This document shows, piece by piece, positions 2,574 to 42,956 of a stretch of DNA of 64,000 nt (its first letter is position 1; each line of letters starts with the position of its first letter). The notes beneath the pieces are model-generated. The model worked only from the letters and a program-made list of their open reading frames with translations, searched no databases and was not told where the DNA came from. Origin of the DNA: Actinomycetes bacterium (lineage in GTDB: Bacteria > Actinomycetota > Actinomycetes > Mycobacteriales > Micromonosporaceae); the NCBI GenBank assembly GCA_023402505.1, contig JAEYGD010000367.1, positions 3,870 through 67,869 of the forward strand, in the 5' to 3' direction. Both the position numbers and the translations under genes were made by a program.

Positions 2574-3631
2574 GCGACCACCCCGGTTCCGTCCTCTGGC
2601 GACGTTGCCTTGGTGAAGATCAGGACGTCCTCGTGCGCGATGAGGTGCATCGGCACCCCGGACGAGCGGGCCTTGCGGACTTGCTGGAGTTGGAAGAACG
2701 ACGGGCGGGCGGCGAGCTGCCCGTCGCGGACGGCCGCGAGGAGGGCGACGCACCGCTCGATCGGCACGAGGCCGGCACGCAGGCCGGCGGCGATGACGGC
2801 GCTGGGCAGGTCGACCAGTTCGCCGCGTTTGCGCCACGGCCTGGCGGTGACCACGACGACGCCGCCGGGCCGCAGCAGGGTGGCGCAGCCGGCCAGGATC
2901 TGGGCGAACCCGTCGGCGAGGCCGGTCAGGTCGCGGTAGGCGAGGTTGCCCTTGTCCTCGCCGTAGCGGTCGTCGTACTTGACGACCCCGTCCGCGCCGG
3001 GCCGGACGAGGCCGTGCACGGTCGGCCCGTACGGCGGCGAGGTGACGACGAGGGCCACCTGCCCGGTGAGGGCTTTCGGGACCAGCGACATCAGCCGAGT
3101 GGCGTCGCCGCGGATGACCGACGCCCGTCCGCTGGCGCCCTGGTCGTGGGCGTGGCGGATGTTGGCGTCGGCGATGTTGCTCCACCGCGGCTCGTACTCG
3201 ATGCCGAAGGCGTCGCGGCCGGCGTGGACCGCCTCGACCAGGGTGGTGCCGATGCCGCACATCGGGTCCAGGACCAGGTCGCCGGGCTGGGTGTAGGCGC
3301 GGATCGCGTGGGCGGCGATCGCGGGAAGCATCCTGGCCGGATGCTTGACCGATTCCGGCACGTAGCGTCCGCGTCGCTGGACGGGGCCGGTCGACTGGGC
3401 GGTGGCCCAGACGGACAGGCTGTCGGGGTCGGCGCGGTGCCGGCTTTCGTAGTCGCGGTGCCGGCCCCGGTAGTCCGCGCCGGCGGCGAAGCCCTTGGTG
3501 TCCGGCTCGTTCGGGTCGGGTTGTCCGGTGGTGGTGTGCTCAGGCACGGCGCTCACCGCCGTTGCGGTTGCGGCGCCGCCCCGACCCGGCCGCGGGGGAC
3601 TGCTGTGGGGTGAAGACCAGCAGGTCCGCAT
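2570..3631 (-). CDS. SAM-dependent methyltransferase (motif I DPMCGIGTT, motif IV TSPPYG)
   Basis: LVLDPMCGIGTTLVEAV ... ALVVTSPPYGPTVHG. Motif I precedes motif IV (gamma order), as in Trm11/UPF0020-like or N6/N4 DNA methyltransferases. The real start may be the GTG at 3556, which would reduce the overlap with the upstream gene. Confidence 0.8.
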   Translation of the reverse strand: MRTCWSSPHSSPPRPGRGGAATATAVSAVPEHTTTGQPDPNEPDTKGFAAGADYRGRHRDYESRHRADPDSLSVWATAQSTGPVQRRGRYVPESVKHPARMLPAIAAHAIRAYTQPGDLVLDPMCGIGTTLVEAVHAGRDAFGIEYEPRWSNIADANIRHAHDQGASGRASVIRGDATRLMSLVPKALTGQVALVVTSPPYGPTVHGLVRPGADGVVKYDDRYGEDKGNLAYRDLTGLADGFAQILAGCATLLRPGGVVVVTARPWRKRGELVDLPSAVIAAGLRAGLVPIERCVALLAAVRDGQLAARPSFFQLQQVRKARSSGVPMHLIAHEDVLIFTKATSPEDGTGVVA

Positions 3632-6876: not shown

Positions 6877-7158
6877 CGGGACCTTTCGCGAGCCGTACCG
6901 CTCGCCGGTCCCGCCCGCCGCCGGGCGACACGAGGAACCGCGATCCGCGTGCCTCGGGTGCCGCGCCACGTTGATGCGCTGACACCACATTGATGACCGC
7001 AACCCACCCATGAGGGAGGAAGAGCTCCTCCCGGGGCTCACGCGGTTCGTGCGCTTCTTCACCTGCGCCCGGCGGCGGTCCCTTCGACCGCTTCGAGCAA
7101 TCGCCGCGCCCCGGGTCACGCCTTTCGGCGTCCGGGGTGCGGCGGGAGGTGAACCGCC

Positions 7159-7539
7159 ATGTCCCGCACCCCACATCACACTCTTCGAACCCAGCGACTC
7201 GTTCGTCTCGCACTGCGTGTGGCCGTGCCGCTGGGCGGCGTCGGCCTGTCACTCGCCCTCCCGGCCGCCGCGTACGCCGACACCGGCGTGCCGGTGCTGG
7301 CGGCGAACTCCCTGCCGGTCGTCATCGACAACCTGCGGCTGTGGCTGGTCGGCATCCTCGCCGCGGTCGCGACCCTGTTCCTCGTCCTCGCCGGCGTGTA
7401 CTGGGCCACCGCCGGAGGCGACCCGGCGCAGGTCGAGCGGGCCAAGAGCGCGCTGCGCAACGCCCTGGTCGGCTACGGCCTCGCGGTCCTCGCCCCGGTC
7501 CTGCTGCAGATCGTCCAGGGCATCGTCGGAGCCCCGTGA
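7159..7539 (+). CDS. VirB2/TrbC-like T4SS pilin/membrane protein
   Basis: Signal peptide ending AAAYA, followed by two hydrophobic helices. The ATGGDP motif region and the 126-aa size fit. First gene of the T4SS operon. Confidence 0.75.
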   Translation: MSRTPHHTLRTQRLVRLALRVAVPLGGVGLSLALPAAAYADTGVPVLAANSLPVVIDNLRLWLVGILAAVATLFLVLAGVYWATAGGDPAQVERAKSALRNALVGYGLAVLAPVLLQIVQGIVGAP

Positions 7540-8462
7540 TGGGTTTCCTGTTCGACCAGATCCTGGACTGGCTGGCGGCGGCGATCCTGGCGACTCTGGA
7601 CGCGCTGTTCGGGGTGATCAGCACCGCGCTGCTGGTCACCCCGAACGTCACCGGCCTGCCGCAGGTGCAGGCCCTGACCGGCCGTTCCGTGCTCGTCGTC
7701 GACACCGTATTCGTCCTGGCGTTCATGGCCGCCGGGGTGCTCACCATGACCGCCGGTGGCAGCGAGAACTCCCGCTACACCGTCAAGGACCTCGTCCCGA
7801 GGCTGGTCGTCGGGTTCGTCGCCGCGCACTTCTCGCAGCTGTGGTGCGGCATGCTCATCGACCTGGCCAACGCGCTGACCGGCGCGCTCACCACCCCCAG
7901 CGGGGACTCCGACGGCGCCTTGCAGGCGATCAGGACCCACATCGACGCGGGGCAGGACAAGACGGCGGCGCTGCTGTTCGTGATCTGCGTGGCGATCATC
8001 GCCGTGCTGCTCGCGGCCACGGCGTTCAGCGTGATCGTCCGCTTCGCGGTCGTGCTCGTCCTGACCGCCGCCGCCCCACTCGCGCTGGCCTGTCACGCGC
8101 TGCCACAGACCGACCCGGTCGCCCGGCTGTGGTGGCGCTCCTACCTCGGCGTCCTGGCGGTGCCGGTGGTGCAGGGCTTCACCCTCTACGCCGGGCAGTG
8201 GATGCTCACCGACCCCCAGCACCTGCTGCCCGTGCTCGGCCTGCCGGCGGAGCCCGGCGGGGTGCTCAACCTGTTCGTCGTCATGGTCATGCTCTGGACC
8301 ACCCTGCGGGTGCCGTCCCTGATGCGCCGCTACGTCGCCGCCGGAGGCACCGGCGGCCGCGGGGTGAACATGCTCGGCGCGGCCGTGCGGGTCATCGTCG
8401 TGCAGCAGGTCGCCCGCTCGATTCCCGGCCTCGGCCGCGGGCTGAGGGCGGTGGGCCGATGA
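7539..8462 (+). CDS. VirB6/TrbL-like polytopic T4SS membrane protein
   Basis: The ATG overlaps the preceding TGA (GTGATGG). There are at least 6 predicted TM helices. Its position follows the pilin gene. Confidence 0.7.
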   Translation: MGFLFDQILDWLAAAILATLDALFGVISTALLVTPNVTGLPQVQALTGRSVLVVDTVFVLAFMAAGVLTMTAGGSENSRYTVKDLVPRLVVGFVAAHFSQLWCGMLIDLANALTGALTTPSGDSDGALQAIRTHIDAGQDKTAALLFVICVAIIAVLLAATAFSVIVRFAVVLVLTAAAPLALACHALPQTDPVARLWWRSYLGVLAVPVVQGFTLYAGQWMLTDPQHLLPVLGLPAEPGGVLNLFVVMVMLWTTLRVPSLMRRYVAAGGTGGRGVNMLGAAVRVIVVQQVARSIPGLGRGLRAVGR

Positions 8463-16659: not shown

Positions 16660-17072
16660 CCCGCACCACACCCCCGGGTGGGCCGGTCTGTCGCACCCGC
16701 GACCAGCCGGCCCACCTGAGGCCGCGCCACGAAACCACCGCTGGCGCCGTCACTGACCACGCCGCAGGCACCAGGAGCGTGCTTCCCACAGGCTGTGCTC
16801 GACACAGCGTTGATGACCGGCGCGTCCCATCGGCGGCAGTCACCTCCACACCGGGTTCTTTCCCGAGTTGAGTGCCCACCACCATCGCGGCCCTCGTCCA
16901 GCCACAGCCCGCCTCGCTCGGCTGCGTCACACCAGCCCGCCCACCACCGCGAGGGGACTTCTCGCCCGAACGCCAGGTGCCCCGGGCGTGGGGCGCCTCA
17001 TCCCACCTGGCCTGAGACAGGCCGCCCTGTTCCTCTTCCCGTCTCTCCCCTTCCAAGGAGGTCCGGTTCACC

Positions 17073-17993
17073 ATGCCCACCCGACTGTGGTTCCGCGTCG
17101 AGGACGTGCTGCCGCTGGCAGAACACGCCCTCGCCTGCCCCACCCACCGCCTCACCCGCGCGCAACTCGCCGCAGGCGAGCACAACACCCCGGCGCTGAC
17201 CCTTCACCGGACCGGCCCCGAAGGACAGCTGCGATCCAACGGCGTGCCGGTCTGGCACACCCCACACGGCGACGAACAGGCCGCCTACGGCGGCGCGTGG
17301 CGCCCCACCGCAAGCTCCGTCCCCGAGCCGGATCAGCACCTGTACCTGCCCCTGCGGCACGCCGGCCCCGACGGGCGCCGGCTGATCGACATCCTGCGCG
17401 CCGGCCGTGCCCTCGACCGTCCCTGGCTCGCGATCAACACCGACGCCGGACCCGGGTGCGCGTTGGACACCAGACACGTGGAGCTGTTCGACCACCGCGC
17501 GGACATCGCACCAGAGGGGGCGCGGTGGCGGCCGGTCATGGTGACCTCATCGGTGATCGACGGCCGGGACTACCCCGCGCTGGTCGCCGACGGCTACGTC
17601 GCCGGCAGAGACAGTCGCCTGATCTGCCGGTTCCATCAGCAGACCGTTCGGCAGATGGCCGCGGACCTCGCCGGGCCGTGGCGCGCCGACATGATGCCGG
17701 GCGAGTGCCCGCTGCTGCGCTTCGACGGCACCACCGCGCTGCTCCTCGAAGAGGAAGACATCGGAGCAGCGATCCGCCTCGACGTTGACGACCGCTACTA
17801 CCCCGACCGGGACGGCTACTACAGCATCGGCGCCTACCGATGGGATTGGCAAACCTCGCCTATCGAGGGCATGCCCGTGCGGAATCGGCTCCGGCTGTAC
17901 CTGAGCGCCCTGTCCGGCCGCCTCCGACGGATCACCGCCGCGCATCGCCTACCTCGGCAGACGTCCGCTGCTGGCGACAATCCGTTGTTCTGA
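17073..17993 (+). CDS. hypothetical protein (its 3' end lies 26 bp from the Tn7-like insertion point)
   Basis: RBS AAGGAGG upstream of the ATG. 306 aa with non-repetitive composition. Confidence 0.65.
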   Translation: MPTRLWFRVEDVLPLAEHALACPTHRLTRAQLAAGEHNTPALTLHRTGPEGQLRSNGVPVWHTPHGDEQAAYGGAWRPTASSVPEPDQHLYLPLRHAGPDGRRLIDILRAGRALDRPWLAINTDAGPGCALDTRHVELFDHRADIAPEGARWRPVMVTSSVIDGRDYPALVADGYVAGRDSRLICRFHQQTVRQMAADLAGPWRADMMPGECPLLRFDGTTALLLEEEDIGAAIRLDVDDRYYPDRDGYYSIGAYRWDWQTSPIEGMPVRNRLRLYLSALSGRLRRITAAHRLPRQTSAAGDNPLF

Positions 17994-18019
17994 CCCGACA
18001 TCCCGAGCCGCCGCCGAAC

Positions 18020-18120
18020 TGTGACTACCACCGATAGATGGCGGGTCGAGCCGCCATGCCCAGGGACGTCGGCTCTGTTACCAGCGATAGTTGGCGGCGT
18101 TTCCCAGGTGTAGGTGGCGG
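18020..18120 (+). repeat. transposon end with spaced putative TnsB-binding repeats
   Basis: Sites at 18020-18044 and 18076-18097 (TGTTACCAGCGATAGTTGGCGG), plus a degenerate third site at 18103-18120. Confidence 0.8.
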
Positions 18121-18249
18121 CTCGTGCCGGACGCCTGTCGACGCTCCGGATCGTGGTAGGTCGGGTCATCGGGTGTGGGCATGCCGCTCTTCAGACCGTG
18201 CCCCGGAGAAGGGGAGTATCCAGCGGTCGTTCAGGATTGCCCGGTGCAG

Positions 18250-19443
18250 ATGTCGATCGTGATCGCCCAGGTTCCGGCCGTGTGGAATGTAGACGTCAAT
18301 CTGATCACCGTGCGCGACGTCATCGACGACACCCGCCCGGGTGACGTCGTCGTTCTGCCCGAAGGGATGCTGTCTGGCTACGGCGAGGATCTCGCGCCGC
18401 TGGCCGCGCTACCGCCGGACGCCGTACACCACGCTGTGGACCAGGTGGCCGAGCTCGCCCGGCTGCATCAGGTGCAGATCTTCTGCGGTTCACTGCTGCC
18501 CGTTCAGGATGGATGGTGCAACGCCGGCCTCTTCTTCTCGGCCGACGGCCGCCATCAGGTCTACCGGAAGATCAACCTCGCGATGAACGAACGTGGTCGG
18601 CTGCATCCTGGTGATCATCTGCCGACCATGGACCTCACCCGCCCGGACGGGAAAGTCACCATCGGTATGCAGCTCTGCCGCGAGATCCGATTTCCGGAAC
18701 AATGGCAATACCTCGCGGCGGCCGGCGCGCAGATGTTCGTCTACCTCACCAACGCGGCCAACCCTGGCGAGGTCGATGGGGTCTGGCGAAGCCACCTGAT
18801 CAGCCGCGCCGCCGAGAATCAGCGCTTCCTCGCCGCCGCCAACATCGCCCACCCGGACCAGCACTGCCCCAGCATGGTGATCTCACCGCGAGGCGAGGTA
18901 ATCGCCGAACTCCCTCCCGGACGCCCCGGCCTGCTCCGGCAGACCATCCGTCCCGACGAGGCCGCCAACTGGTACCTCGGGCAACGCCGTCAGGACGTCG
19001 TCGCGTTGACCTACCAGGCAGGCGATCTGTCCCGGCGCGAACCCCACAACTCGGAGGACGACTACCAGCAGGCGCCGCAGCCGGCCGAGGGCGAGGCGAA
19101 GGTCATCACGCTCTGCGGCTCCACCAAGTTCGAGGCTGAGTTCGCGGAGGTCAACCAGCGGCTCACGATGGAAGGCTGCGTCGTGATCAGCCTCGGCATG
19201 TTCAGCCTCCCCGATCTGCCGAACTACGACTGGACAGTCGACAACTCGGGCCTGAAGAGACGGCTTGGCGGGGTGCACTTCCAAAAGATCCGGATGGCCG
19301 ACGAGGTGTACGTCGTGGATCCGGGCGGCTACTTAGGGGAGTCGACCCGACGGGAGATTGCGTACGCGGAGTCGCTCGGCAAGCCGGTTCGGTATCTGAG
19401 TCGTGAGCGCTTGGTGCGAACGGGGGACGGCCCCCAAGAGTGA
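18250..19443 (+). CDS. fusion protein: carbon-nitrogen hydrolase (nitrilase superfamily) + C-terminal nucleoside 2-deoxyribosyltransferase-like domain
   Basis: The N-terminal half has candidate Glu/Lys/Cys triad contexts VVLPEGML, VYRKINL and GMQLCREIRF. The C-terminal roughly 115 aa read KVITLCGSTKFEAEF ... VYVVDPGGYLGESTRREIAYAESLGKPV (a small Rossmann-like CGSxxF...E pattern). An alternative start is at 18175. Confidence 0.7.
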   Translation: MSIVIAQVPAVWNVDVNLITVRDVIDDTRPGDVVVLPEGMLSGYGEDLAPLAALPPDAVHHAVDQVAELARLHQVQIFCGSLLPVQDGWCNAGLFFSADGRHQVYRKINLAMNERGRLHPGDHLPTMDLTRPDGKVTIGMQLCREIRFPEQWQYLAAAGAQMFVYLTNAANPGEVDGVWRSHLISRAAENQRFLAAANIAHPDQHCPSMVISPRGEVIAELPPGRPGLLRQTIRPDEAANWYLGQRRQDVVALTYQAGDLSRREPHNSEDDYQQAPQPAEGEAKVITLCGSTKFEAEFAEVNQRLTMEGCVVISLGMFSLPDLPNYDWTVDNSGLKRRLGGVHFQKIRMADEVYVVDPGGYLGESTRREIAYAESLGKPVRYLSRERLVRTGDGPQE

Positions 19444-19503
19444 GTCCGACCGCGGTCCGCTCATCGGCGTACGCGGCTGCGGTGCCCTGAGCAATAGGAG
19501 GTC

Positions 19504-20178
19504 TTGTCGGCGGTGCCGACTACGGTTCCACGCATGGATGCCAAGACCGCCGAGTTGCGGGCCGCCCACGATGTTCTCGCCGAGTTCTACGTCGACCGCC
19601 TTGCTGATGCCATGGATCGGATGCCCGTTGACCGGGCCGTGCTCGGCTTGTTCTGCGACCTGGTACTCGATGCGGATCTCGGCACGAGCGTCGGGGACAT
19701 CGGTTGCGGGACGGGTCGGCTTGAGCCCTACCTGGCTGCCCGGGGTCTGTCGCCGCGGGGGATCGACCTGTCGCCGGAGATGATCCGGGTGGCCCGGCGG
19801 GACTATCCCGACTTCGGGTTCGAGGTTGCCGATCTGCGGAAGCTGCCCTTCGAGGACGCCTCGCTCGCGGGTGTGGTCTGCTGGTATTCGCTGATGTATC
19901 TCCCGCCGTCTGATCGTCCGGTCGCCTTCGGGGAGTTGGCTCGGGTCGTGAAGCCGGGCGGTTTCCTGGCGACCGCGTTCAAGGCTGGTGACAGCCAGGT
20001 CCGGCGCGGTGGTCGGGGCGCGAATCTCGGCGTCGAGTTCGACGTCTACTGGTTGTCGCCCAGCGAGATGGAGCAGCGGGTGGTCGACGCCGGCTTCTCG
20101 ACGGTGTTCTCGGCTGGCCGACCGGCCGAGGAGGGGGAGGGCCAGCCGCAGGGGTACCTGGTCGCCCGCAGGTCCTGA
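19504..20178 (+). CDS. class I SAM-dependent methyltransferase
   Basis: Motif I VGDIGCGTGRL, then GIDLSPEMI, and post-I/II motifs LKPGG-like VVKPGGFL. TTG start with a GGAGG sequence 5 nt upstream. Confidence 0.8.
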   Translation: MSAVPTTVPRMDAKTAELRAAHDVLAEFYVDRLADAMDRMPVDRAVLGLFCDLVLDADLGTSVGDIGCGTGRLEPYLAARGLSPRGIDLSPEMIRVARRDYPDFGFEVADLRKLPFEDASLAGVVCWYSLMYLPPSDRPVAFGELARVVKPGGFLATAFKAGDSQVRRGGRGANLGVEFDVYWLSPSEMEQRVVDAGFSTVFSAGRPAEEGEGQPQGYLVARRS

Positions 20179-20290
20179 CGCCGATCCGGGCCGCACCTGG
20201 TTTGATGGCGGTGGGTGGTTCGACTCGCCGCAAAGCCGCGCGAATCGGGAACCGAGTTACGGACATCCATCCATCTTGTTAGATGGGTGG

Positions 20291-21136
20291 ATGTCATCGT
20301 CGGACGGTGCGATCAGCGTCGGTGGACTGCGGTCCGACCGGTGCGGGCTCGCGGATCTGTGCACCCAGCGGGCCGACTTCGACGAGGCACGAGGATCACT
20401 GGCCCTGACCGACGGGTGGACCGGACGGTGGCGAGCACAATGGCGCGCTTCGGGCGCCCCAGTGCTCTGCGCGGCGCGCGACCTGGCGTCGATCCCGACG
20501 TCGCGATGCGAGCCGGTGCGCCGGTTCTCCTGGCGTCGAGGTCAGCGACACCGTCCGGGCTTGCAGTTCATGGTGTCGACCGGCCGTCACCATGGTTTCG
20601 AGAGCATCGCCGAGCAGCGGCTGCTGCTGGCGTTGGACTTCGCGGGCGGCGTGAGCGACGTGTTGGGCCAGCCATTCCGGTTACGGTTTGCGACCGGGGC
20701 GGGTTGGCGGGAGCACATCCCGGACTTCCTGGCGGTCACGGCCGAGGGCGGCTTATTGATCGATGTGCGGCCGGGAGAGCGGATCGGCGACGACGACCGG
20801 GTGTGCTTCGCGGCAGCGAGGGAAGCGGCGTTGGCGACCGGCTGGCGGTATCTGGCCGTCACCGGCTGGCGGCCACACGTGCAGACCGGCCTGGACACGC
20901 TGTCCGCACAGCGCCGCCCGCTGCGCGACCCGTTGGGCCTGCAGTCGGAGTTGTTCACGGCGGTCGCGTCAGGTCCGCGATCGTTCGGCGATCTCGTGGC
21001 GGCCACCCGGCTACCCGCAGTGGCACGAGCGCACGCCCTGCACCTGATCTGGCACCGGCGCCTCGGGATCGACCTATCGACCCCGTTGAATGACGCCACG
21101 AAGGTGTGGGCCTCACCGGCCGGAGCCGGCCGATGA
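20291..21136 (+). CDS. tnsA: TnsA-like endonuclease subunit
   Basis: FESIAEQRLLLALDF ... QPFRL ... HIPDFLAVTAEGGLLIDVRP (TnsA_N-like E...PD...xVx pattern). The stop overlaps the tnsB start (ATGA). Confidence 0.75.
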   Translation: MSSSDGAISVGGLRSDRCGLADLCTQRADFDEARGSLALTDGWTGRWRAQWRASGAPVLCAARDLASIPTSRCEPVRRFSWRRGQRHRPGLQFMVSTGRHHGFESIAEQRLLLALDFAGGVSDVLGQPFRLRFATGAGWREHIPDFLAVTAEGGLLIDVRPGERIGDDDRVCFAAAREAALATGWRYLAVTGWRPHVQTGLDTLSAQRRPLRDPLGLQSELFTAVASGPRSFGDLVAATRLPAVARAHALHLIWHRRLGIDLSTPLNDATKVWASPAGAGR

Positions 21137-23400
21137 GTCAGCACGTCGGCATGCTCGACCTGTCGCCCGGCGCCGTCGTCGTGGTCGACGGCGTCGAGTG
21201 GCTGGTCGAGTCCTTCGCACCGCAGTACGGGCACATCCAGCTGCACCGTGGTGACGGTACGACGATGCAGACCACGGTGCGGGCCCTGCTGACCGGCCCG
21301 GCACGCCGCGCGCCGGTAGGCGCGACGACCGTGGGGACAGACTCGGCGGCCCGCCAACCGGTCACGCTGGCCGACCTGACCCAAGATCAGCGGGAGTTGG
21401 CGCTGGTCCGGCTGGCACACGTGCTGGAGGTGGAGACCGGGTTCCGTGGTGGTGATCCGTTGCGGCCAGGACCGGGTGAGCCCCGCGCCTGCTACGACCC
21501 GGACGCCACGACGTTGACCGCGCGGCGACTGGCGAAGGTGGCCGAACTCCAAGCCCTTGATCCGCAGGATGCGCGGCGGCTCGGGTTCGCCCATGTCAGC
21601 CTGCGCACGCTGGAGCGGCTGGGCGCGGACTGCCGCCGGTTCGGGGTCGCCGGAGCCATCCTGGGCAGCTGGGTACGCCGCAGCGGTGGGCGGTCGAGCA
21701 TCACCGAACCCATCCGGGAGGCGATCTTCGCGGTGCGGGCCGAGACGCTGCACCGGTCGCGGATCAGCATGACGGCGCGGCGTCGGTTGATCTGCCAGTA
21801 CGTGCGGGAGAAGTACGACGAGCAGGTCCAGGTGCCGTGCTACGAGACGCTGCGGCAGGTGTGGCGGGAATGGTTCGGTCCCGGCGGTGCCCGGCAGCGC
21901 CATCAGCGCTCAGCCGCCGCGGTCGAGCCCACCGGGACTCACGTGGTGGTGCACCGGCCGGGGCAGGTCATCGCGTTGGACACCACGATTCTGCCGGTGA
22001 AGGTCCGCGAGAGCGTGTTCGGCGACCCGGTATCGACACATTTGACGATCGCGTTGGACGTGTACACCCACTCGTTGGTGGCGTTCCGGCTGACCTTGGT
22101 GTCGGACACGTCGGTGGACGTGGCAATGCTGCTGCGGGACGTGATGACACCGCTGCCACTGCGCGACGGGTGGGGCGAGGACATGATCTGGCCCTACCCG
22201 GGAGTGCCGGCCGCGGTGGTGGCCGAGTTCGCGGGATACCCGGTGGCCGCGTTGCCGTTCTTCGCCCCGGAGACCGTCACGACCGACCACGGCTCCGTCT
22301 ACAAAAACCACAATCTGGTGGAAGTGCAGCGGGTCATCGGCGCGAACATACTCCCAGCTCGGGTGCTGCGCCCGACGGATAAGCAGGCAGTGGAACGCGC
22401 GTTCGGCGCCATACAGAGCCTGCTGTTCGAGCACCTGCTGGGCTACCAGGGCGTCGATGTCGCGGACCGGGGCGTCGACCCGGAGGCCGACGCCGTGCTC
22501 ACGGTCGAGGCGATGGAACACCTGGTCGCGACCTGGTCGGTGAAGATCTGGCAGAACCGGGTATTGGGCGAGTACGCCCCAGCTTGGGATCCGGGTGGTC
22601 GGCACAGCCCGAACACGTTGTTCGCCGCCGCGATGGCCCAGGGCGGGTTCGCGTTGCAGATCCCTACGCCGGAGCTGTACTACGAGCTGCTGCCCGCGCA
22701 TCATGTCAGCATTCACGGCCGACGCGGGGTGAAGATCCGCGGACTGTGGTACGACGGACCCGGCCTGGACGACTACCGCAACGAACCATCGACCCGAGGC
22801 GGCGTCCACAAAGGCAAGTGGGTCGTGCGCTCCGATCCCCGAGACCGGCGGACCGTGTTCTTCCACGACCCCAGCAATGGGCAGTGGCACACCTTGCGGT
22901 GGACCGGGCAGCCGGCCGAGGGCGAGATCCCGTCGTTCTCCGACGCCCGAGCCCGGCAGCTTCTCGAGCACGCCCGTCAGGCCGGCCTGAAACCCCGCTC
23001 CGACGCGGAGCTGTTGCCGCTGCTGCTGGACCTCCTCGCCGACGTCACGCCCGTCCAGCAGTGGCCCACCCAAGCAGGCCCAGCAGCCGGAACGGGCAAA
23101 CGGCACCGCACCGAGCACGCCCGGGAGGCGACGCAGGCCGCCGCCGCACACGCCGACCGCCCCGAAAAGCCTGTGGCGACCGAGCCCGGATGCGGGCAGG
23201 ACGTGGGGACGGTGGTGCCGATACGCCCGGCGGACCGGGTCGCGCAGGTGCAGACCGCGGTGGACGCCGAGCGTCGACGACGCCGCGAGGCCGCGGTGCC
23301 GGACCGGCCGCAGCCTCCGCCACGGCTCGGCGACGCGTTCCGGCGGCGCAGCCTGTTCCTGCTTCCCGCCGACGAGCCAGAGCCGGGGCAGGCCGGATGA
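21133..23400 (+). CDS. tnsB: TnsB-like DDE (Mu/rve-type) transposase
   Basis: DDE candidates are VIALDTT, TVTTDHGSVYKN and AVERAF, with 35 residues between the second D and the E. 755 aa. Confidence 0.85.
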   Translation: MSQHVGMLDLSPGAVVVVDGVEWLVESFAPQYGHIQLHRGDGTTMQTTVRALLTGPARRAPVGATTVGTDSAARQPVTLADLTQDQRELALVRLAHVLEVETGFRGGDPLRPGPGEPRACYDPDATTLTARRLAKVAELQALDPQDARRLGFAHVSLRTLERLGADCRRFGVAGAILGSWVRRSGGRSSITEPIREAIFAVRAETLHRSRISMTARRRLICQYVREKYDEQVQVPCYETLRQVWREWFGPGGARQRHQRSAAAVEPTGTHVVVHRPGQVIALDTTILPVKVRESVFGDPVSTHLTIALDVYTHSLVAFRLTLVSDTSVDVAMLLRDVMTPLPLRDGWGEDMIWPYPGVPAAVVAEFAGYPVAALPFFAPETVTTDHGSVYKNHNLVEVQRVIGANILPARVLRPTDKQAVERAFGAIQSLLFEHLLGYQGVDVADRGVDPEADAVLTVEAMEHLVATWSVKIWQNRVLGEYAPAWDPGGRHSPNTLFAAAMAQGGFALQIPTPELYYELLPAHHVSIHGRRGVKIRGLWYDGPGLDDYRNEPSTRGGVHKGKWVVRSDPRDRRTVFFHDPSNGQWHTLRWTGQPAEGEIPSFSDARARQLLEHARQAGLKPRSDAELLPLLLDLLADVTPVQQWPTQAGPAAGTGKRHRTEHAREATQAAAAHADRPEKPVATEPGCGQDVGTVVPIRPADRVAQVQTAVDAERRRRREAAVPDRPQPPPRLGDAFRRRSLFLLPADEPEPGQAG

Positions 23401-24668
23401 GTAGCGAGCCGCCGGACACCGCGGCGTTCGCGTTACCCGGTCCGGCGATTGCTCGGGAGACCGCCGAAGGTTGGAGCCAGTGGCGGGCCACCCGGCACAG
23501 TTTCACGCCGGCACCGCGGCTGTCGCTGGCGCAGTGGCGAACGTTGAGCCCGCGACAGCGGGTGCTGCACGACCTGCACCGAGCCGCCACCCACGCGAAC
23601 CTGCCCATTCAAGAGACCCCGATGAGCGCCACGGTCGCCCGGGTGATGGGCTCCCGGCTGTTCAACAACGCCCTCAAGCACAAACCGACCACCCGCGCCG
23701 GGCTGATGATCAACGGCGGTGGCTACCAGGGCAAGACCGAAACGGTCTGCGAGATCGCCGCCGCGTTCGAAGACCAGTGGCTGGACCTGCACCAGCAAAT
23801 CAACCCGCACGCGGTGCCCGGCACCCGGGACCTGCACGCCGCCGTCGCCTACGTGCAGACGCCGGTCACCGCCACCCCGAAAAGCGTCTGCCAGGCGATC
23901 CTCGACTTCTACGGCGCACTCCACAAAGGCATGACGCTGCCGCAACTGGTCCACGCCGTGCGCGGCTCGCTCTACGACCACGCCACCAAGGTCCTCATCC
24001 TGGATGACATCACCCGGCTGCGGATGCACCGCGAGGCTGACCAGGACGCCCTCGACCTGATCCGCGCGTTGATGAGCATGCACCTGACCCTGGTCCTGGT
24101 CGGCGTCGGCATTCCCGCCTCCGGGCTGCTGCGCGAAGGCCGCCGGGACCGGGTCACCGGCCAGGTCGTCTTCGCTCAGCCCCGCCACGCCCGCACGTTC
24201 ACCGACGAGGCGGCCACCCAGACCGAACGCCGCTTCGACCTGATCGACCTCGACCCGTTCCGCTACGACACCCCGCCGAGCATCGCCGCGTGGGTCACCC
24301 ACCTGGCCGGGATCGAGGACAACCTGCGGCTGCTGCGCGCCGAGCCGGGCATGCTCACCGACGGGGGCGTGCCGGAGTACCTGTTCCGCCGCACCGGCGG
24401 GATCGTCGGCCTCCTCGAACGGCTCATCGAAGACGGCGCCGCACACGCCATCGACACCGGTGCCGAGCGCCTGACCACCGATCTGCTCGACACCATCGAC
24501 ATCAACCTCGGCAACCTGGCCCGCCGCGACACCACCGCCGGCGAGATCCCCGACATCCCTCCGCGCCCGGCCCCAGCCGCCGGCAAGGGCAAGGGCAAGG
24601 GCCGTAACACCGTCTTCGACGATCACGGCGGCACGAGCGGCGACCAGCCGACGGCATCGACCGCGTGA
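23397..24668 (+). CDS. tnsC: TnsC-like AAA+ ATPase
   Basis: Walker A NGGGYQGKTET and Walker B VLILDDITRL. ATGA overlap with tnsB. Confidence 0.8.
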   Translation: MSSEPPDTAAFALPGPAIARETAEGWSQWRATRHSFTPAPRLSLAQWRTLSPRQRVLHDLHRAATHANLPIQETPMSATVARVMGSRLFNNALKHKPTTRAGLMINGGGYQGKTETVCEIAAAFEDQWLDLHQQINPHAVPGTRDLHAAVAYVQTPVTATPKSVCQAILDFYGALHKGMTLPQLVHAVRGSLYDHATKVLILDDITRLRMHREADQDALDLIRALMSMHLTLVLVGVGIPASGLLREGRRDRVTGQVVFAQPRHARTFTDEAATQTERRFDLIDLDPFRYDTPPSIAAWVTHLAGIEDNLRLLRAEPGMLTDGGVPEYLFRRTGGIVGLLERLIEDGAAHAIDTGAERLTTDLLDTIDINLGNLARRDTTAGEIPDIPPRPAPAAGKGKGKGRNTVFDDHGGTSGDQPTASTA

Positions 24669-26572
24669 CCAGCCGATTGCCGCGCAGCCTCGACCCGCTG
24701 CCCGACGAGTCGCTGCCCGGCTACCTGCTCCGGCTCTCCCACCGCCTCGGCCTGGCACCCACCCGGCTGCAACAGGCCACCGGCCTCGCGCTCGCGCCCA
24801 ACGCCGCCCGCGCCAGCACCATGCTCGCCCTGACCCCGGAAACGGCCGCCGCGTTCGCCCACGCGACCCGGCTCAGCACCACCGAGGTCACCGCCCTGAC
24901 CCTGGGCAGCCTCGCCAACCGTTATCCGCCGGTCGATCTCGCCCGCACCGGCCGCGACCACCGGCGCCTGGTGCACGGCCTGTTCGTCCGCGAAAGCTGG
25001 GTGTTCGCCCGGTTCAGCCGATACTGTCCGCACTGCCTGGCCGGGGACGGCAGCCTCATCCAACAACACCACGGCGGCGGCTGGAACAAGCTCTGGCGGC
25101 TACCGATTGTGTTCGCCTGCCCCACCCACCAGCGGTTACTCGCACACACCTGCCCCGCCTGCGCGCAGCCCGCGCTGTCGCGTGGCCCCGGCGCGGCGAT
25201 GATCCCGCGCGGCGGAGACAGCACACTGCACCCCACCGCCTGCCGAGCCCCCGGCCCCGAGCCGCGACCCACCATCGGCCCCTGCGGTCACCGACTCGAC
25301 CAAGAACCGCCCTCCACGAACTCCCACGACCTTGCGCCACCGCTCGCCCTGCAACACCGGCTGCTGACCCTCCTCAACGCCGACAACGCGACCACGATCA
25401 GCGCCGGCAGTCCGGCCACCTCCAGCCAGTACGTCACCGACCTGCGAATCCTCACCTGCCTGATCACCGCCTCCTGGCCCACCAGCCGGCATCTGGCCGA
25501 CACCGCGGACGCCGCCGGCCTCATCGACCGGCACGTCCAGAACGTCCAAACCCAGATCGACCAAGACCGTCGCGAGCAGCGATACCCGCGCGACAACGCC
25601 CTCTACGACGCGCCACCCGCCGACGCCGCCACCACCGCGGCACTGCTCATCGCGGCAGCACGCATCACCGACGCGGACAGCCCGGACTCGGCCCGCGACA
25701 TCGCCGCACCCTTGCTGGAGTGCCGGCCGGGCACCCGCCCATGGGTCAGGAAGTTCCTACCCGGCGACGGCTACTGCTCACCTGGGCTGCAAGCCGCGCT
25801 CGGGCCCGAAGTCGGGGCGCTGCACATCATCAAACGCACCGGCGTCCCGCACTACTCCACCCGTCGGCGCCTACCTGCGCCGCTGCCGGTCCGCTTCGGC
25901 ATCCAGTACATCCCGCAGCGCCCACCCGAACAGTGGCTCGACTGCCTCGACGAGTTCACCGACCTCAAACCGCGTTTGCTGGAGCACGTCCTCGTGATCC
26001 GGCTCGCGCACGCCACAACCGGCGGAACCCTCATCGACGCCGCGGCCCATCTCGGCATCCCCCGACTCGCCGCCGACAACGCGCTCCGCGTCACCCACCA
26101 GACGCTGGCCGCCACCTCCCGCCACGAACGGTTCGACCACGCCGTCGGCAACCTCGTCGAACACCTCAATACCACCACGGACCTGATCGACTACGGCCGA
26201 CGCCGCGACGCACTTCGCACCTGGGAGATCCCGCCCGACCAATGGCAGGAACTCATCGACGGACTACCCGGCCAACTGATCAAGAACCGCCTCGTGCCCC
26301 ACACCCATTGGGGCGACGGCAAACGCCGACTCGCCAGCACCTGGGCATGGACCGAGCTGACCCACGGCGATCACATCTACGCCCCCGCCGTCCGCCCCGA
26401 CATCCACGCCACCCGGCCCGGAGGCGAAGACGTCCACTACGTCCACACCCGCTGGCAGCACCTGCTACGGCCCTCGCCCTACGGTCACTTCCGACAACTC
26501 CGCGACCGCCTCGATCCGTTCGTCCGACAACTCGGCGAACACATCGACAACCCTCCGAGCGTCGCGCAGTAA
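24665..26572 (+). CDS. tniQ: TniQ-family target-selection protein
   Basis: N-terminal PLPDESLPGYLLRLSHRLGL (TniQ signature) and the cysteine cluster YCPHCL ... CPTHQ ... CPAC. GTGA overlap with tnsC. Confidence 0.8.
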   Translation: MTSRLPRSLDPLPDESLPGYLLRLSHRLGLAPTRLQQATGLALAPNAARASTMLALTPETAAAFAHATRLSTTEVTALTLGSLANRYPPVDLARTGRDHRRLVHGLFVRESWVFARFSRYCPHCLAGDGSLIQQHHGGGWNKLWRLPIVFACPTHQRLLAHTCPACAQPALSRGPGAAMIPRGGDSTLHPTACRAPGPEPRPTIGPCGHRLDQEPPSTNSHDLAPPLALQHRLLTLLNADNATTISAGSPATSSQYVTDLRILTCLITASWPTSRHLADTADAAGLIDRHVQNVQTQIDQDRREQRYPRDNALYDAPPADAATTAALLIAAARITDADSPDSARDIAAPLLECRPGTRPWVRKFLPGDGYCSPGLQAALGPEVGALHIIKRTGVPHYSTRRRLPAPLPVRFGIQYIPQRPPEQWLDCLDEFTDLKPRLLEHVLVIRLAHATTGGTLIDAAAHLGIPRLAADNALRVTHQTLAATSRHERFDHAVGNLVEHLNTTTDLIDYGRRRDALRTWEIPPDQWQELIDGLPGQLIKNRLVPHTHWGDGKRRLASTWAWTELTHGDHIYAPAVRPDIHATRPGGEDVHYVHTRWQHLLRPSPYGHFRQLRDRLDPFVRQLGEHIDNPPSVAQ

Positions 26573-26647
26573 CGCCGGCTGAGTCCTCGATCGGAGCCAC
26601 CAGCCAACGAGACGGCAGAGAGCCAGCGAGGTGCCGGCAGCGCCGTC

Positions 26648-26692
26648 CCGCCATCTATCGCTGGTAGCCGCCATCTATCGCTGGCAATCACA
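26648..26692 (-). repeat. transposon end with two abutting putative TnsB-binding repeats
   Basis: CCGCCATCTATCGCTGGTAG (26648-26667) is immediately followed by CCGCCATCTATCGCTGGCAATCACA (26668-26692). Confidence 0.85.
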
Positions 26693-26794
26693 CGAACCGG
26701 AGACGGCAGTGGTCCCGAGATCCGGTCCGTTGCACTTGATCAGCGCCGCGTTCGAAGCGTGGATCAGTGCTGACCTCACACCCACCCAGGGGAG

Positions 26795-27604
26795 ATGCCC
26801 ATGACCGACGCACAACCCGTACCCGCACACGCCATGTTCAAGGTCCTCGCCGCGCTCGGCGAACTCGGAGAGGCCACCGCCGCAGCGGTAGCCGACAAGG
26901 CCGGGCTCGGCTACTCCACCGCCACGGCCAAGCTGCGCGCCTGGGAGCAGACCGGGCTGGCCGAACGCATCCGCACCGAGGACAACCGTGCCGTGTGGCG
27001 GCTGACCGACACCGGCCGCGCCACCGTCGGCGCCGACCGGGCCGCGCTCCCGACCCACACCGCTGACGACGTGCTGCCCGGCGAGCCGGCGCAGGCGACG
27101 GCGGACACCCCCGACGCCCCTGCGGTAACTGCCGACGCGGCGGAGCCACCCGAGCAGCCCGCGCCGGAGCCGGACAACCCGGCTGGCGGCGGACAACCTG
27201 TCGACTCGGCCGCTCCGCCGGACGCACCCGCACCGCCTGGCGGGGACGAGGAACGCACTCCATCGGCAGACGGGGACGCCCAGCAGGCCGAACCGGCGCC
27301 TGACCGCCGCGAGCCGGAAGCTGGCGCCGAGTCCGCAGGCTCAGGCACCTCGACCGCACGCAGCCGGCGGACGAAAGGCTCCCTGCGAGGGGCGGTGCTG
27401 GACATCCTCGAAGCGCATCCCGACCGGGCCTACAAGACCAGCGATCTGTGCAAGCTCATCGACGCCGCGAACGCCGGCACCGACGCCAAGAAGGCCAGCG
27501 CCGGCGCGGTCGTCAACGCCGCGGACAAGCTGGTCAACGACGGCAAGGCCGTGCGGACCGTCGACAAGCCCGCCACCTTCCAACTCGCCCCCGCCAACCC
27601 GTAG
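26795..27604 (+). CDS. double winged-helix (MarR-like) DNA-binding protein
   Basis: N-terminal VLAALGELGEATAAAVADKAGLGYSTATAKLRAWEQTGLAER and C-terminal AVLDILEAHPDRAYKTSDLCKLI, separated by a P/A/D/E-rich linker. The ATG at 26801 is an equally good start. Confidence 0.7.
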   Translation: MPMTDAQPVPAHAMFKVLAALGELGEATAAAVADKAGLGYSTATAKLRAWEQTGLAERIRTEDNRAVWRLTDTGRATVGADRAALPTHTADDVLPGEPAQATADTPDAPAVTADAAEPPEQPAPEPDNPAGGGQPVDSAAPPDAPAPPGGDEERTPSADGDAQQAEPAPDRREPEAGAESAGSGTSTARSRRTKGSLRGAVLDILEAHPDRAYKTSDLCKLIDAANAGTDAKKASAGAVVNAADKLVNDGKAVRTVDKPATFQLAPANP

Positions 27605-27705
27605 CCGGCGGGCATCCACACCAGCAAGGCAGCCCAGGGGCGGGCGTGAAGTTGACCGCTACCCGCCCGCCCCCGGTGCTCCTTCGTACACAAGGAGCGA
27701 TCTCA

Positions 27706-39726: not shown

Positions 39727-40636
39727 GAGCCTTTTTCAAGCTGATCTTGCAGCTCGGGGCGGGTGTGGCAGGCCCGGTGATCGATGGGTGCGAGGCTCCA
39801 GGTAGGGCAGCTGTCGACCAAGACTCGAAGCCCCGACCGGGAGCCTCGCCATGCTGTCCTACCCCGCCACGATTCCGTTGTCCAGCCGCACCCTGAACCA
39901 CCTCGCCGAACGCATCCGCGGCCACCGCAAGCAGCGCCGATCCCGGTGGCGGCGCCTCGATCCCGATCGACAGGCGCTACTGGCTCTCGCCCACCTGCGC
40001 AACGGCGACACCTACACCCGACTCGCTGCCGGCATCGAGATCGGCGTCGCCACCGCCTGGCGCTACGTGCAGGAAGCGATAGCCCTGCTCGCGACAGCCG
40101 CCGACGACCTGGCCACCGCCATGCAACGGATCCGCCGGCTGGCGTACGCGATCCTGGACGGCACCCTGATCCCGATCGACCGGGTCGCCGACCAGCGGCC
40201 CTACTACTCCGGGAGACACAAGCGCCACGGCGTGAACGTACAGGTCATCGCCGATGCCGCTGGCCGGCTCGTCTGGGCTTCCCCGGCGCTGCCCGGTTCG
40301 GTCCATGACCTGACCGCAGCCCGAACCCACTGCATCATCGACGCGCTGACCAACGCAGACGTGCTGACCTTCGCCGATAAGGGCTACCAAGGCGCCCGTG
40401 GCACCGTCTGGACCCCGTTCAAACGCCGCCGCACCCGACTGTCCCGCCGGCAGAAGTCCGTCAACCGGCACCACGCCACGATCCGAGCCCTCGGTGAACG
40501 CGCCGTCTCCACGCTCAAGACGTGGAAGATCCTGACCAAACTACGCTGCTGCCCCCGCCGCGCCACCCCGATCGTCCAGGCCATCCTCGTCCTCCAAGCC
40601 GCCGAGGAAGCCCGCTACCCACGATGAAAATGGCTC
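39727..40636 (+). mobile_element. IS5-family (DDE_Tnp_4 type) insertion sequence, 910 bp
   Basis: Terminal inverted repeats are GAGCCTTTTTCA (39727-) and TGAAAATGGCTC (-40636), 11/12 complementary. ATT flanks both sides (39724-39726 and 40637-40639), suggesting a 3-bp target duplication. Confidence 0.7.
39851..40627 (+). CDS. IS5-family DDE transposase (DDE_Tnp_4 / Harbinger-like)
   Basis: N-terminal HTH ALLALAHLRNGDTYTRLAAGIEIGVATAWRYV. DDE contexts AILDGTLIPI, YSGRHKRHGVNVQV, FADKGYQG and ERAVSTLKTWKIL. Confidence 0.85.
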   Translation: MLSYPATIPLSSRTLNHLAERIRGHRKQRRSRWRRLDPDRQALLALAHLRNGDTYTRLAAGIEIGVATAWRYVQEAIALLATAADDLATAMQRIRRLAYAILDGTLIPIDRVADQRPYYSGRHKRHGVNVQVIADAAGRLVWASPALPGSVHDLTAARTHCIIDALTNADVLTFADKGYQGARGTVWTPFKRRRTRLSRRQKSVNRHHATIRALGERAVSTLKTWKILTKLRCCPRRATPIVQAILVLQAAEEARYPR

Positions 40637-40651
40637 ATTACCCTCGATGCC

Positions 40652-40861
40652 ATGACTACTTGGCTGTACGCCTACGACGGCGGGAGACCGTTCGCGTGGA
40701 CATCCGACGGCCGCGACTACTGGCTCGTCGGTGACAGTACCTGGTGGGCACGACGCGATGGCAAGTGGCTCTACTCCCAACGCGGCCAGATCGTGGGGTA
40801 CTTCGACGGCCAGACGGTGTACGACAGTGACACCCACCGACCGGTCCACTTCGGGGACTGA
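40652..40861 (+). CDS. small hypothetical protein with repeated W/Y-G beta-hairpin pattern
   Basis: WLYAYDGG.PFAW / YWLVGDSTWWA / KWLYSQRGQIVGYFDGQTVYD. The repeats look like a small beta-repeat fold. There is no clear RBS. Confidence 0.45.
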   Translation: MTTWLYAYDGGRPFAWTSDGRDYWLVGDSTWWARRDGKWLYSQRGQIVGYFDGQTVYDSDTHRPVHFGD

Positions 40862-41250
40862 TCCTCACCGCCGAGTCCGTTCCCATACTCGCAGCGCTAC
40901 CAATGACCGGTCAGACCACCACCGCGCCGCTCGGATCGATACTGAGTCGCCGTGCGACCGTCACCATGGGCTAACGACCCTTTCGTTACCGAAGCGTAAT
41001 CGTTGCAGACGGTGAACTCCGAACCAGCGCTTAACGTCCAAACTGGACGCCGCTTCGCACGTGAGTGACGCAGCCTCACGTCGGTCGACACCCCAAGTTC
41101 CACTCCCGTCCGTCGGCGGGACAGCGGCAACGGTGCGCTTCATGCTAGTTTCCTCGGCGGATCGATCAAGCTGGCCAGCCTAATTCAAACTGCATGGGGC
41201 GATGGAAGGTTCAAGGCGCCCTTTATCGGACCTAGAGAGCGGAGCAGGCA

Positions 41251-41616
41251 GTGCGAATTCGAGTTAGCGTGTTAGCTACGGCCGTAGCGGCCGGCTTCGC
41301 AGGGGCGTCGGTGTTGGCCGTTCCCGCACAAGCCGATCTCTCGCTTCACCAATCCCTGAATTACAGGGGCGGGGCCTACAACACTACCAATAGCAACTAC
41401 ACCTACCACGACGGCGACACCTTCAACAATGGATACCGCCTTCACGACGCGGTGAGCTCGCTTAACAACATCACGTCGTACACCGCGTGCTTCTACACGG
41501 AACACTTCTATGGCGGTGCGCGCTCCGGATATGCGCCCTTGGTCAAGACTGGCTACGTTGGAGATTCGTTGAACGACAAGTTCTCCTCCCACGAACTCGT
41601 CGCGGGCGGGTGCTGA
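41251..41616 (+). CDS. secreted small protein, peptidase-inhibitor I36 / beta-gamma-crystallin-like
   Basis: Signal peptide ending AVPAQA. Aromatic- and Gly-rich mature part with a terminal Cys (...FYTEHFYGG ... VAGGC). The region has lower GC. Confidence 0.6.
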   Translation: MRIRVSVLATAVAAGFAGASVLAVPAQADLSLHQSLNYRGGAYNTTNSNYTYHDGDTFNNGYRLHDAVSSLNNITSYTACFYTEHFYGGARSGYAPLVKTGYVGDSLNDKFSSHELVAGGC

Positions 41617-42059
41617 AGCTCCCGCCCTAGAAGATCTAGCGTTCAATCACTGAGTAGTGCCTAGATCAGCATGCCCGTCTGGCAGTGGGACGCCTGCCCG
41701 GCGAGGGTCTACGACAACCCATACCTGTCCGTCGCCTCCTGGGCAGGAGAGTCGCCATGGGTGTGCGACTGCATGGCGGACAGGGCAGGCTCCACTACGT
41801 CAAGACGGCGCTATGACAGAGATGCAGTGCGACACCATGGCCGCTGGGGCTCCCCCTGCCAAGATCACAACTACACTGTGGCCATGGAGGGAGTCTCAGT
41901 CCCACACACTGGTTGCGATGCTGGGATCCCCAGCATGAACGACCAGATGCCTCGTATAGCCCAGCTGATGGGAGTGGCATTAGTGATGCTCGGGTGCGCC
42001 CCCGTTCCAGGGGCGCACCCGACCCGCGTGGAGGTTAAAGGAACGTGCGAAGGCCCAGT

Positions 42060-42947: not shown

Positions 42948-42956
42948 GGAGAGGTC

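Follow-up and report, generated by a model that had tools for sequence, protein, structure and literature searches.

A Tn7-like transposon inserted in an actinobacterial conjugative element and its probable intergenic attachment site

Tn7-like transposons are studied for their safe and precise choice of insertion site and form the basis of programmable insertion tools. Tn5053, which has no TnsA, transposes replicatively and encodes the resolvase TniR together with a res site. Tn7-like elements are typified by a 5-bp target duplication, control of orientation and asymmetric arrays of TnsB sites; the distinctive end of Tn7 is the right one, which has overlapping TnsB sites and is by convention the end upstream of the tns genes (PMC11406308). 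Tn7-like elements have been found in 40% of Streptomyces genomes, and telomere-targeting ones have been described (bioRxiv 10.1101/2024.11.13.623437). The boundaries and cargo of clade 2 of these transposons were catalogued by Benler et al. 2021 (PMC8649781), and none of the clade has been characterised experimentally; NCBI keeps a dedicated TnsA-like model, NF033179, for it. Here we analyse a 64,000-nucleotide stretch of contig JAEYGD010000367.1 from a member of the Micromonosporaceae (the window), which contains an 8,673-bp Tn7-like transposon at 18020-26692, inside a conjugative element of the type IV secretion system (T4SS) type. The transposon is an intact, ordinary member of this Actinobacteria-dominated clade 2. 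We propose that it probably moved by canonical Tn7-type transposition and that its target is a conserved block upstream of a MarR-like gene, read by TniQ or by a complex that TniQ senses.

The ends of the transposon, the proposed attachment block and the two neighbouring genes are as follows.
17073..17993, plus strand: left neighbour, a conjugative-element gene for a hypothetical protein (306 aa; without Pfam or NCBIfam match; G+C at third codon positions, GC3, 0.86)
18015..18019, no strand: left duplication, CGAAC, read directly; its counterpart in the empty site of L083 is CGGAC
18020..18120, plus strand: spaced-repeat (Tn7-left-like) end on the tnsA/cargo side, with putative TnsB sites from 18020, 18073 and 18096
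26648..26692, minus strand: abutting-repeat (Tn7-right-like) end, with two head-to-tail putative sites at 26668-26692 and 26648-26667
26693..26697, no strand: right duplication, CGAAC, from direct reading and the terminus-pair scan
26713..26770, plus strand: conserved intergenic block, TCCCGAGATCCGG, then GCACTTGATCA, then GAAGCGTGGATCAGTGC, with CTTG 43 bp from the transposon end
26801..27604, plus strand: right neighbour, a MarR-like winged-helix gene of the conjugative element with weak MarR, TrmB and IclR helix-turn-helix (HTH) matches

All TGT...ACA pairs bracketing the tns genes were scanned, and a single pair combined at least 20/25 terminal identity with a 5/5 duplication. The left terminus (18020-18044) is TGTGACTACCACCGATAGATGGCGG and the right terminus (26668-26692), read as its reverse complement, is TGTGATTGCCAGCGATAGATGGCGG; the two match at 22 of 25 positions, and CGAAC is perfectly duplicated on both flanks, which bears out the original prediction that the Tn7-like element is complete, has exact ends and is flanked by a 5-bp duplication. 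Further copies of the core inside each end, including an abutting pair at the 26692 end, had also been predicted and are present. At the left end the 25-mer copies begin at offsets 1, 54 and 77 from the transposon end, with cores at 18028-18044, 18081-18097 (1 mismatch) and 18104-18120 (4 mismatches). The third copy, degenerate and previously missed, keeps its position in relatives, as do all three, and the spacing formerly given as 31 bp is 28 bp between 25-mers or 36 bp between 17-nt cores. At the right end the two copies abut, at offsets 1/21. This asymmetry of putative TnsB sites (1/54/77 against 1/21) is kept family-wide: the 1/54/77 pattern recurs in the related loci L071, L077, L080, L011 and most of the family, and the 1/21 offsets hold across it. 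The left end lies 26 bp beyond the stop of ORF 17073-17993 (at 17993) and the right end 120 bp beyond the tniQ stop (at 26572), both exactly the distances first read from the window.

That the transposon sits inside a conjugative element, as had been suggested, is confirmed by its surroundings. Upstream lie genes for TrbL/VirB6, VirB4-like and coupling (T4CP) proteins and a Replic_Relax relaxase, and downstream those for an NlpC/P60 hydrolase, a DUF4314 protein and a MoxR/VWA pair; the region is syntenic with L082, which is located at ~3.34 Mb in a 7.46-Mb contig. Homologs of ORF 17073-17993 (58-79% identity) are found in Micromonospora elements, nearly all of them being from Micromonospora. 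The MarR-like protein has ~250 homologs; among the matches listed with a source name nearly all are from Micromonospora, and most are named MarR family. In L081, L082, L083 (M. globbae) and L084 the ORF17073 homolog is followed directly by the MarR-like homolog, no transposon lying between them, and the order T4CP, relaxase, orf14870, ORF17073 homolog, MarR-like gene and NlpC/P60 is kept. The junction rebuilt with one CGAAC aligns colinearly with all four (for example, gccgccgaaccggagacgg in the window and gtcgccggaccgggtccgg in L083). An uninterrupted junction in related genomes had been named as the mark of a true insertion; these real empty sites supply it and exclude the possibility that the transposon region is ancestral sequence.

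Relatives were sampled as ~90 loci from a genome scan, contig look-ups and one metagenome scan, the last of which used a degenerate end 25-mer and gave 4 loci, 2 of them new. Five insertions occupy the same right-flank position (class 1): those of the window, L071 (Micromonospora sp. CA-248260), L077, L086 and L091, the TniQ proteins of the last four being 71%, 70%, 53% and 65% identical to that of the window, respectively. In each, the tniQ-proximal end faces a shared sequence, CTTG(A/C), then TCGAAGCGT, then ATCAGTGC, and the distance from the start of CTTG to the transposon end is 43 bp in the window, 41 bp in L071, 44 bp in L077, 43 bp in L086 and 45 bp in L091. A MarR-like homolog stands directly to the right of the element in L071 (44%), L077 and L091. 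The block thus defined lies at the same offset in all four occupied sites outside the window, and among the empty sites 26713-26770 is 86-88% identical against 62-78% for neighbouring DNA (67-78% for the last 60 nt of ORF17073 and 62-76% for the spacer around the insertion point). Searched against 1.65 Mb of collected DNA, an nhmmer profile of the class-1 block returned only occupied and empty class-1 sites at E <= 1e-3, and every sub-motif of the block is single-copy in the window. Because of this conservation, profile specificity and sub-motif uniqueness, we place the conserved determinant on the right flank, upstream of the MarR-like gene; from sequence comparison, the block 26713-26770 is the probable attachment-site determinant. 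A solo remnant end of a window-type element falls within the 44 bp that separate the L091 element from CTTG, which puts the determinant at or beyond about +41.

Two side observations concern this site. Solo remnant ends of window-type elements are found in both L071 (3060-3084) and L091 (5944-5968), 9-12 bp from the intact elements, a sign that this site has been used more than once; CGAAC, the pentamer duplicated in the window, also flanks the L091 remnant. The next match of the class-1 profile, at 19604-19646 of L027 (E 0.013), lies ~7.5 kb to the right of a more distant element (TniQ 47%) on a contig that also encodes an ORF17073 homolog (P0161), and may be an unoccupied class-1-like site.

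The original prediction had placed the target on the other flank: TniQ would bind the 3' coding end of ORF 17073-17993 and direct insertion ~26 bp downstream, as TnsD does at glmS. The insertion does begin 26 bp past that stop codon, the ORF end shows the conservation among related elements given above, and in L011, a relative inserted at a different site, the equivalent end lies 25 bp past a stop codon. However, the gene concerned in L011 is unrelated to the upstream gene of the window, and other copies next to homologs of ORF 17073-17993, which this model led one to look for, number 0 among the ~90 related loci. L071, L077, L086 and L091 share the right flank, but their left flanks are all unrelated (a remnant end in L071, small unrelated genes in L077, an unrelated ORF in L086), and the distance from the element to the upstream gene varies, being ~250 bp in L077 and 42 bp in L086. 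Moreover, it is the spaced-repeat end that faces the ORF, whereas Tn7 presents its closely packed end to the TnsD site (PMC11406308). The 26-bp distance is explained by the shortness of the intergenic region. The glmS-like model is largely refuted, and we give it very little chance of being right: the left gene is not conserved among occupied sites, and conservation is confined to the right flank, where the determinant is intergenic. What survives of the predicted site-specific homing is the recurrent, orientation-specific insertion seen in relatives, at a site marked to the right of the element.

The preferred reading, that the right-flank block is the target, can be set out as a series of steps. 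TnsB and the TnsA-like subunit would bind the asymmetric repeat arrays at both ends, with TnsC as the adaptor linking the transposase to TniQ. TniQ, or a complex sensed by TniQ, would recognise the conserved intergenic block upstream of the MarR-like gene, a gene carried by T4SS-type conjugative elements and most recognisable in those of Micromonospora and relatives. Insertion would be oriented, with the abutting-repeat, tniQ-proximal end toward the block, 41-45 bp before CTTG and ~20 bp before the first conserved base; it would create the 5-bp duplication and leave intact both neighbouring genes and the conserved block. The transposon would then ride the conjugative element into horizontal transfer. 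Within this scheme, TniQ may be the direct reader of the block, the block may be a regulatory region, and the element may be currently active.

The machinery for these steps is encoded by four of the six genes of the transposon, all on the plus strand, the other two being cargo.
18175..19443, plus strand: carbon-nitrogen hydrolase, cargo (PF00795, E 2.3e-25, residues 31-266)
19504..20178, plus strand: S-adenosylmethionine (SAM)-dependent methyltransferase, cargo (Methyltransf_25/11)
20276..21136, plus strand: tnsA-like gene (NCBIfam NF033179 TnsA_like_Actin, 149.5 bits, cut-off 110)
21106..23400, plus strand: tnsB, DDE transposase (weak Pfam rve match under the cut-off; Protein Data Bank (PDB) matches)
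23397..24668, plus strand: tnsC, AAA+ regulator (PF05621 TniB 26.3 bits, cut-off 22.4; AAA_22 32.2, cut-off 27)
24665..26572, plus strand: tniQ, target selector (PF06527, 81 bits, cut-off 27)

The start of the tnsA-like gene is uncertain (TTG 20276 or ATG 20291). Its product scores 17.7 bits against PF08722, under the cut-off, and carries the motif E...PDF...DVR, with E in GFES..E and D in PDF, which is conserved in 59 relatives. The only PDB sequence matches of TnsB are the TnsB proteins of CRISPR-associated transposons (CASTs; E 2.6e-6); D394 and E430 align with the catalytic D (TD motif) and E (VER motif) of ShCAST TnsB, and an ALDTT motif is found at residue 290. TnsC has a Walker A motif, GGGYQGKT, at residue 107 and a Walker B motif, LILDD, at residue 200. 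TniQ (635 aa) consists of an N-terminal zinc-ribbon TniQ domain, whose Cys/His residues are invariant in 31 homologs, and a helical C-terminal part of ~450 aa; it has 264 homologs, and those with names are all from Actinobacteria. An AlphaFold2 model of TniQ (predicted local distance difference test, pLDDT, 85.4) has Tn7 TnsD as its top PDB fold match (8v32_J, from a TnsD-TnsC-DNA complex, E 6e-3). The PDB sequence search returned nothing for TniQ or TnsC and only a spurious GntR match for the TnsA-like protein.

No gene for TnsE or for another second selector was found in the element, and no resolvase is encoded among its ORFs, all of which are accounted for. Membership of the Tn5053/Tn402 group was considered and ruled out, the TnsA-like gene being present and a resolvase being absent from the ORFs. 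A CRISPR-associated transposon was likewise rejected, as scans with Pfam and NCBIfam revealed no cas domains and the six genes fill the element, leaving non-coding stretches of <= ~155 bp; CRISPR repeats were not the subject of a dedicated search. As for the cargo, the hydrolase bears a C-terminal extension (~130 aa, from about KVITLCGSTKF) with no match in Pfam, NCBIfam or PDB sequences. A tblastn search located the methyltransferase beside tnsA in L077 (92% identical), with further matches in L080 (90% over part of the protein) and L074-L076 (43%).

Several results weigh against the proposed targeting scheme. The first is a second recurrent site of the same TniQ lineage (class 2), with the motif CAGATTGGCGGCAAAAACCTTGAAGG, on a different type of conjugative-like element. 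It accounts for four events, L011, L089, L072/73/75 and L074, of which L011 comes from Paractinoplanes rishiriensis and has a TniQ 87-89% identical to that of the window, depending on the alignment, and the duplication TCAGA. The abutting end of class-2 elements adjoins CAGATTG(G/C)CG(G/C)CA(A/G)AAACCT(T/C)GA, upstream of a DUF932/TIGR03299 gene or of another operon, with junctions that differ by +/-2 bp; L072 has a second, empty copy of this motif at the position that in L011 is occupied. Profiles of the two classes did not detect each other with nhmmer, and neither class-1 nor class-2 motifs have a second copy in the window. The TniQ identities interleave across the classes (89% between the window and L011, 76% between L077 and L072), L077 of class 1 and L074 of class 2 have the same gene set, and no alignment column of TniQ separates the two classes. 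Because there are two unrelated site classes and no separating residue, a model of one TniQ for one sequence is incomplete.

Other adverse points concern individual copies and features. An off-site copy, L080 (TniQ 87%, duplication CCACC), interrupts a VWA gene that is 57% identical to a VWA gene of the conjugative element in the window. L071, L074 and L075 lack matching duplications, and only one copy identical to the element of the window is on record. No sigma-70 promoter is predicted in the block, promoter and terminator scans returned nothing at either junction, for which reason we do not call the block a promoter. At the third TnsA position the DVR motif has Arg where Tn7 TnsA has the catalytic Lys, in >=90% of the 59 relatives, and the fold match between TniQ and TnsD is weak (template modelling (TM) score 0.20/0.27). 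Two details may be noted beside these points: the unmatched pentamers are CCCAC and CCTCG in L071 and GCCGC with AGATT or CCAGA in L074/L075, for which recombination between tandem copies is one possible cause, and the tniQ of L011 (10001-11904) is split into two frames near 10600, being either a frameshifted pseudogene or affected by a sequencing error.

Use of two sites could be resolved either by a short or degenerate recognition element or by sensing of a bound protein. Under the second alternative, the transposon would not read a long stretch of DNA but recognise, in the regulatory regions of conjugative elements, a structural or nucleoprotein feature such as a bound element-encoded regulator or polymerase, in a manner resembling the hunting of resolvase-occupied res sites by the Tn5053 family. 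Such sensing would account for two unrelated site classes in one TniQ lineage that shows no discriminating residue and has no extra selector gene, and the sites of both classes are intergenic and precede host-element genes of the same orientation. L072 has two copies of the class-2 motif, as would be expected of an operator, and the interrupted gene of off-site copy L080 resembles one carried by the conjugative element of the window. The only feature common to both classes is CTTGA at +41 to +45 (a k-mer scan found only ACTTGA); we discount it, since it comes from two independent site families and is statistically weak. On the other hand, insertions keep to within +/-2 bp of a set position with respect to the DNA motifs, in keeping with direct reading of DNA, other clades of the family target chromosomal sites, for example upstream of argC, and no candidate partner protein has been identified. 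We regard the sensing of a bound complex as unlikely and keep recognition of the conserved block as the preferred reading.

A broader idea is that one TniQ lineage finds its way, with base-pair precision and in a fixed orientation, to two or more unrelated regulatory regions carried by actinobacterial conjugative elements of different types, with neither a change in TniQ nor a second selector. This we put forward only tentatively and consider unlikely. If it were true, TniQ would read either a short promoter-like architecture (CTTGA at ~+43) or a host-element protein bound there, and this would be a mode of target selection not described for TnsA-containing Tn7-like elements, amounting to dedicated hitchhiking on conjugative elements.

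The abutting-repeat end faces the conserved flank in all nine recurrent-site events (five of class 1 and four of class 2), and the insertion positions agree within +/-2 bp, which is the comparative basis for site- and orientation-specific insertion. It might nevertheless be argued that there is no true site specificity, and that the pattern reflects a regional preference for conjugative-element DNA (for example, during transfer replication, as with TnsE) together with shared junctions inherited from one old insertion. The off-site insertion of L080 would suit this view, as would the conjugation genes near many family members, and the CGAAC flanking the L091 remnant could mean common descent of that remnant. 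But the duplications differ (CGAAC in the window, GCCTC in L086, TCAGA in L011), the pentamers flanking the ends are TGCTG/CTGCT in L077 and unmatched in L071, and the left flanks differ as well. TniQ divergence (53-100% identity) does not track the divergence of the host elements, the junction is shifted by 2 bp between L074 and L075, many syntenic elements have the site empty, and the element has no TnsE-like gene. We hold this explanation to be very improbable, and oriented homing to the conserved block remains our preferred account.

Comparison across the family shows which features of the transposon are general. Some 20 relatives have clean TGTGAC... termini and perfect 5-bp duplications, whose sequences are all different, and the end architecture and cargo position are common to ~25 relatives. 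In most relatives with defined ends the tnsA/cargo side is spaced (about 1/54/77) and the tniQ side abutting (1/21). Cargo between a transposon end and tnsA, with tniQ close to the other end, had been singled out as unusual; the layout is as described, but it is no anomaly, for the same cargo position in L071, L074, L077 and L080 makes it the norm of the clade. When the ends are named by their repeat architecture, the cargo occupies the canonical Tn7 place, between the tns genes and the spaced, left-like end. Where the transposon does depart from Tn7 is in operon polarity: its tns genes read toward the abutting-repeat, target-proximal end, and those of Tn7 away from it. This polarity is not fixed within the family: L019 and L038 have the abutting repeats on the tnsA side, their tns operon being flipped with respect to the ends, and in L019 the conserved flank motif goes with the abutting-repeat end, not with the genes.

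In other clades, too, the elements lie at fixed distances from conserved flank motifs of their own, beside the abutting-repeat end. A Streptomyces subclade with TniQ ~35% identical to that of the window (L020 (11873-12983), L023, L024, L019 and L068) is inserted 27-29 bp from TTGCATAAACnTGC...CGTATAGTCATGCC, immediately upstream of argC (TIGR01850, 391 bits); this motif looks like a chromosomal attachment site in the control region of the arginine operon. Orientation rules could not be settled from L020, L024 and L068, whose two ends are too alike (1/21/43 each). In the Streptomyces loci L039 (15397-15890) and L057 (16616-17129) the element lies ~30 bp away from TTGCAAGCnnnTGCTTGCAA, a palindrome that precedes an XRE/ClgR-like HTH gene; this is another clade-specific site. 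A short motif, AGAACCTACA, which ends in ACA like a transposon terminus, is found at +61 to +72 outside the abutting-repeat end in L012, L013, L016 and L046 (and L014), the flanks being otherwise unrelated. Four iteron-like GGTTGTCAC(C/T) repeats lie just outside the end in L090 (TniQ 59%; flank ~3100-3300) and may represent a further target type. Two tandem tniQ genes, with products ~34% identical to each other, occur in L078/L079 (8055-11914) and L091 (1-3770), which points to a lifestyle with two selectors in some of the clade; in L091 a pentapeptide-repeat cargo gene follows tniQ.

Elsewhere in the window, whose G+C content is ~70%, an insertion sequence with a DDE_Tnp_4 transposase lies at 39806-40627 and is followed by a drop in G+C to 0.60-0.65 (40000-46000), a possible sign that the conjugative element ends here or of a further insertion. 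ARAGORN called a tRNA-Lys(CTT) at 7403-7482 on the minus strand, within the TrbL/VirB6 ORF 7014-8462; Rfam finds no tRNA there, nor anything else in the whole window, and the call is probably a false positive. A megablast search of 17000-27700 against the PLSDB plasmids gave only 76%-identity matches to tnsB/tnsC on Streptomyces plasmids, an uninformative context.

In the literature searched, we found neither these attachment sites nor a targeting of conjugative elements by this clade described. The work offers a concrete and testable attachment site for a large actinobacterial clade and, with it, a good experimental entry point. It suggests, as far as comparison of sequences can, that part of the clade may disperse by sequence-specific homing into conjugative elements. 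Comparable dispersal is achieved by Tn7 through TnsE and by CASTs through plasmid-targeting guides. The inverted tns operon and the apparent use of two sites by one TniQ lineage may bear on how orientation and target information pass through TnsC, and a compact four-gene, site-specific system native to high-GC actinomycetes could serve the engineering of Micromonospora and Streptomyces.

In comparison with known systems, the transposon resembles Tn7 in having a heteromeric transposase of a TnsA-like protein and TnsB, a TnsC of the AAA+ type and a target selector whose TniQ domain is followed by a long C-terminal part and whose model has TnsD as its best PDB fold match. It shares with Tn7 the TGT...ACA termini, the 5-bp duplication, the asymmetric ends, one closely packed and facing the target and one spaced, and insertion once, in one orientation, some tens of bp away from a conserved sequence. 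The target here, however, is intergenic and upstream of a gene of a conjugative element, whereas Tn7 targets the 3' coding end of a housekeeping gene on the chromosome. The packed end is the one toward which the tns operon reads, with tniQ ending 120 bp from it, while tnsA of Tn7 starts at the right end; the TnsA motif is D-x-R instead of Q/E-x-K; there are 2 packed and 3 spaced sites as opposed to 4 and 3 in Tn7; TnsE or another second selector is lacking; and the protein similarity is very remote (TnsB against CAST TnsB, E 2.6e-6). The closest described relatives are those of clade 2 (Benler et al. 2021, PMC8649781): the TnsA-like protein exceeds the NF033179 cut-off, the named relatives of TniQ and TnsABC are all actinobacterial, and the end architecture and cargo position are shared. 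Like Tn5053/Tn402, the transposon has a single TniQ and no second pathway, targets mobile elements and possibly uses a regulatory or nucleoprotein site in place of a housekeeping gene (PMC11406308 and general knowledge); unlike them, it has a TnsA-like gene, and no resolvase was found. The Streptomyces telomeric Tn7-like transposons (bioRxiv 10.1101/2024.11.13.623437) are also actinobacterial, were found with the same hidden Markov models, including NF033179, and illustrate a diversification of TniQ in the phylum that has led to unusual targets. Their targets are telomeres, and they show linkage to tap, tpg or ttrA, whereas the transposon of the window has two ordinary ends and an internal site in a conjugative element.

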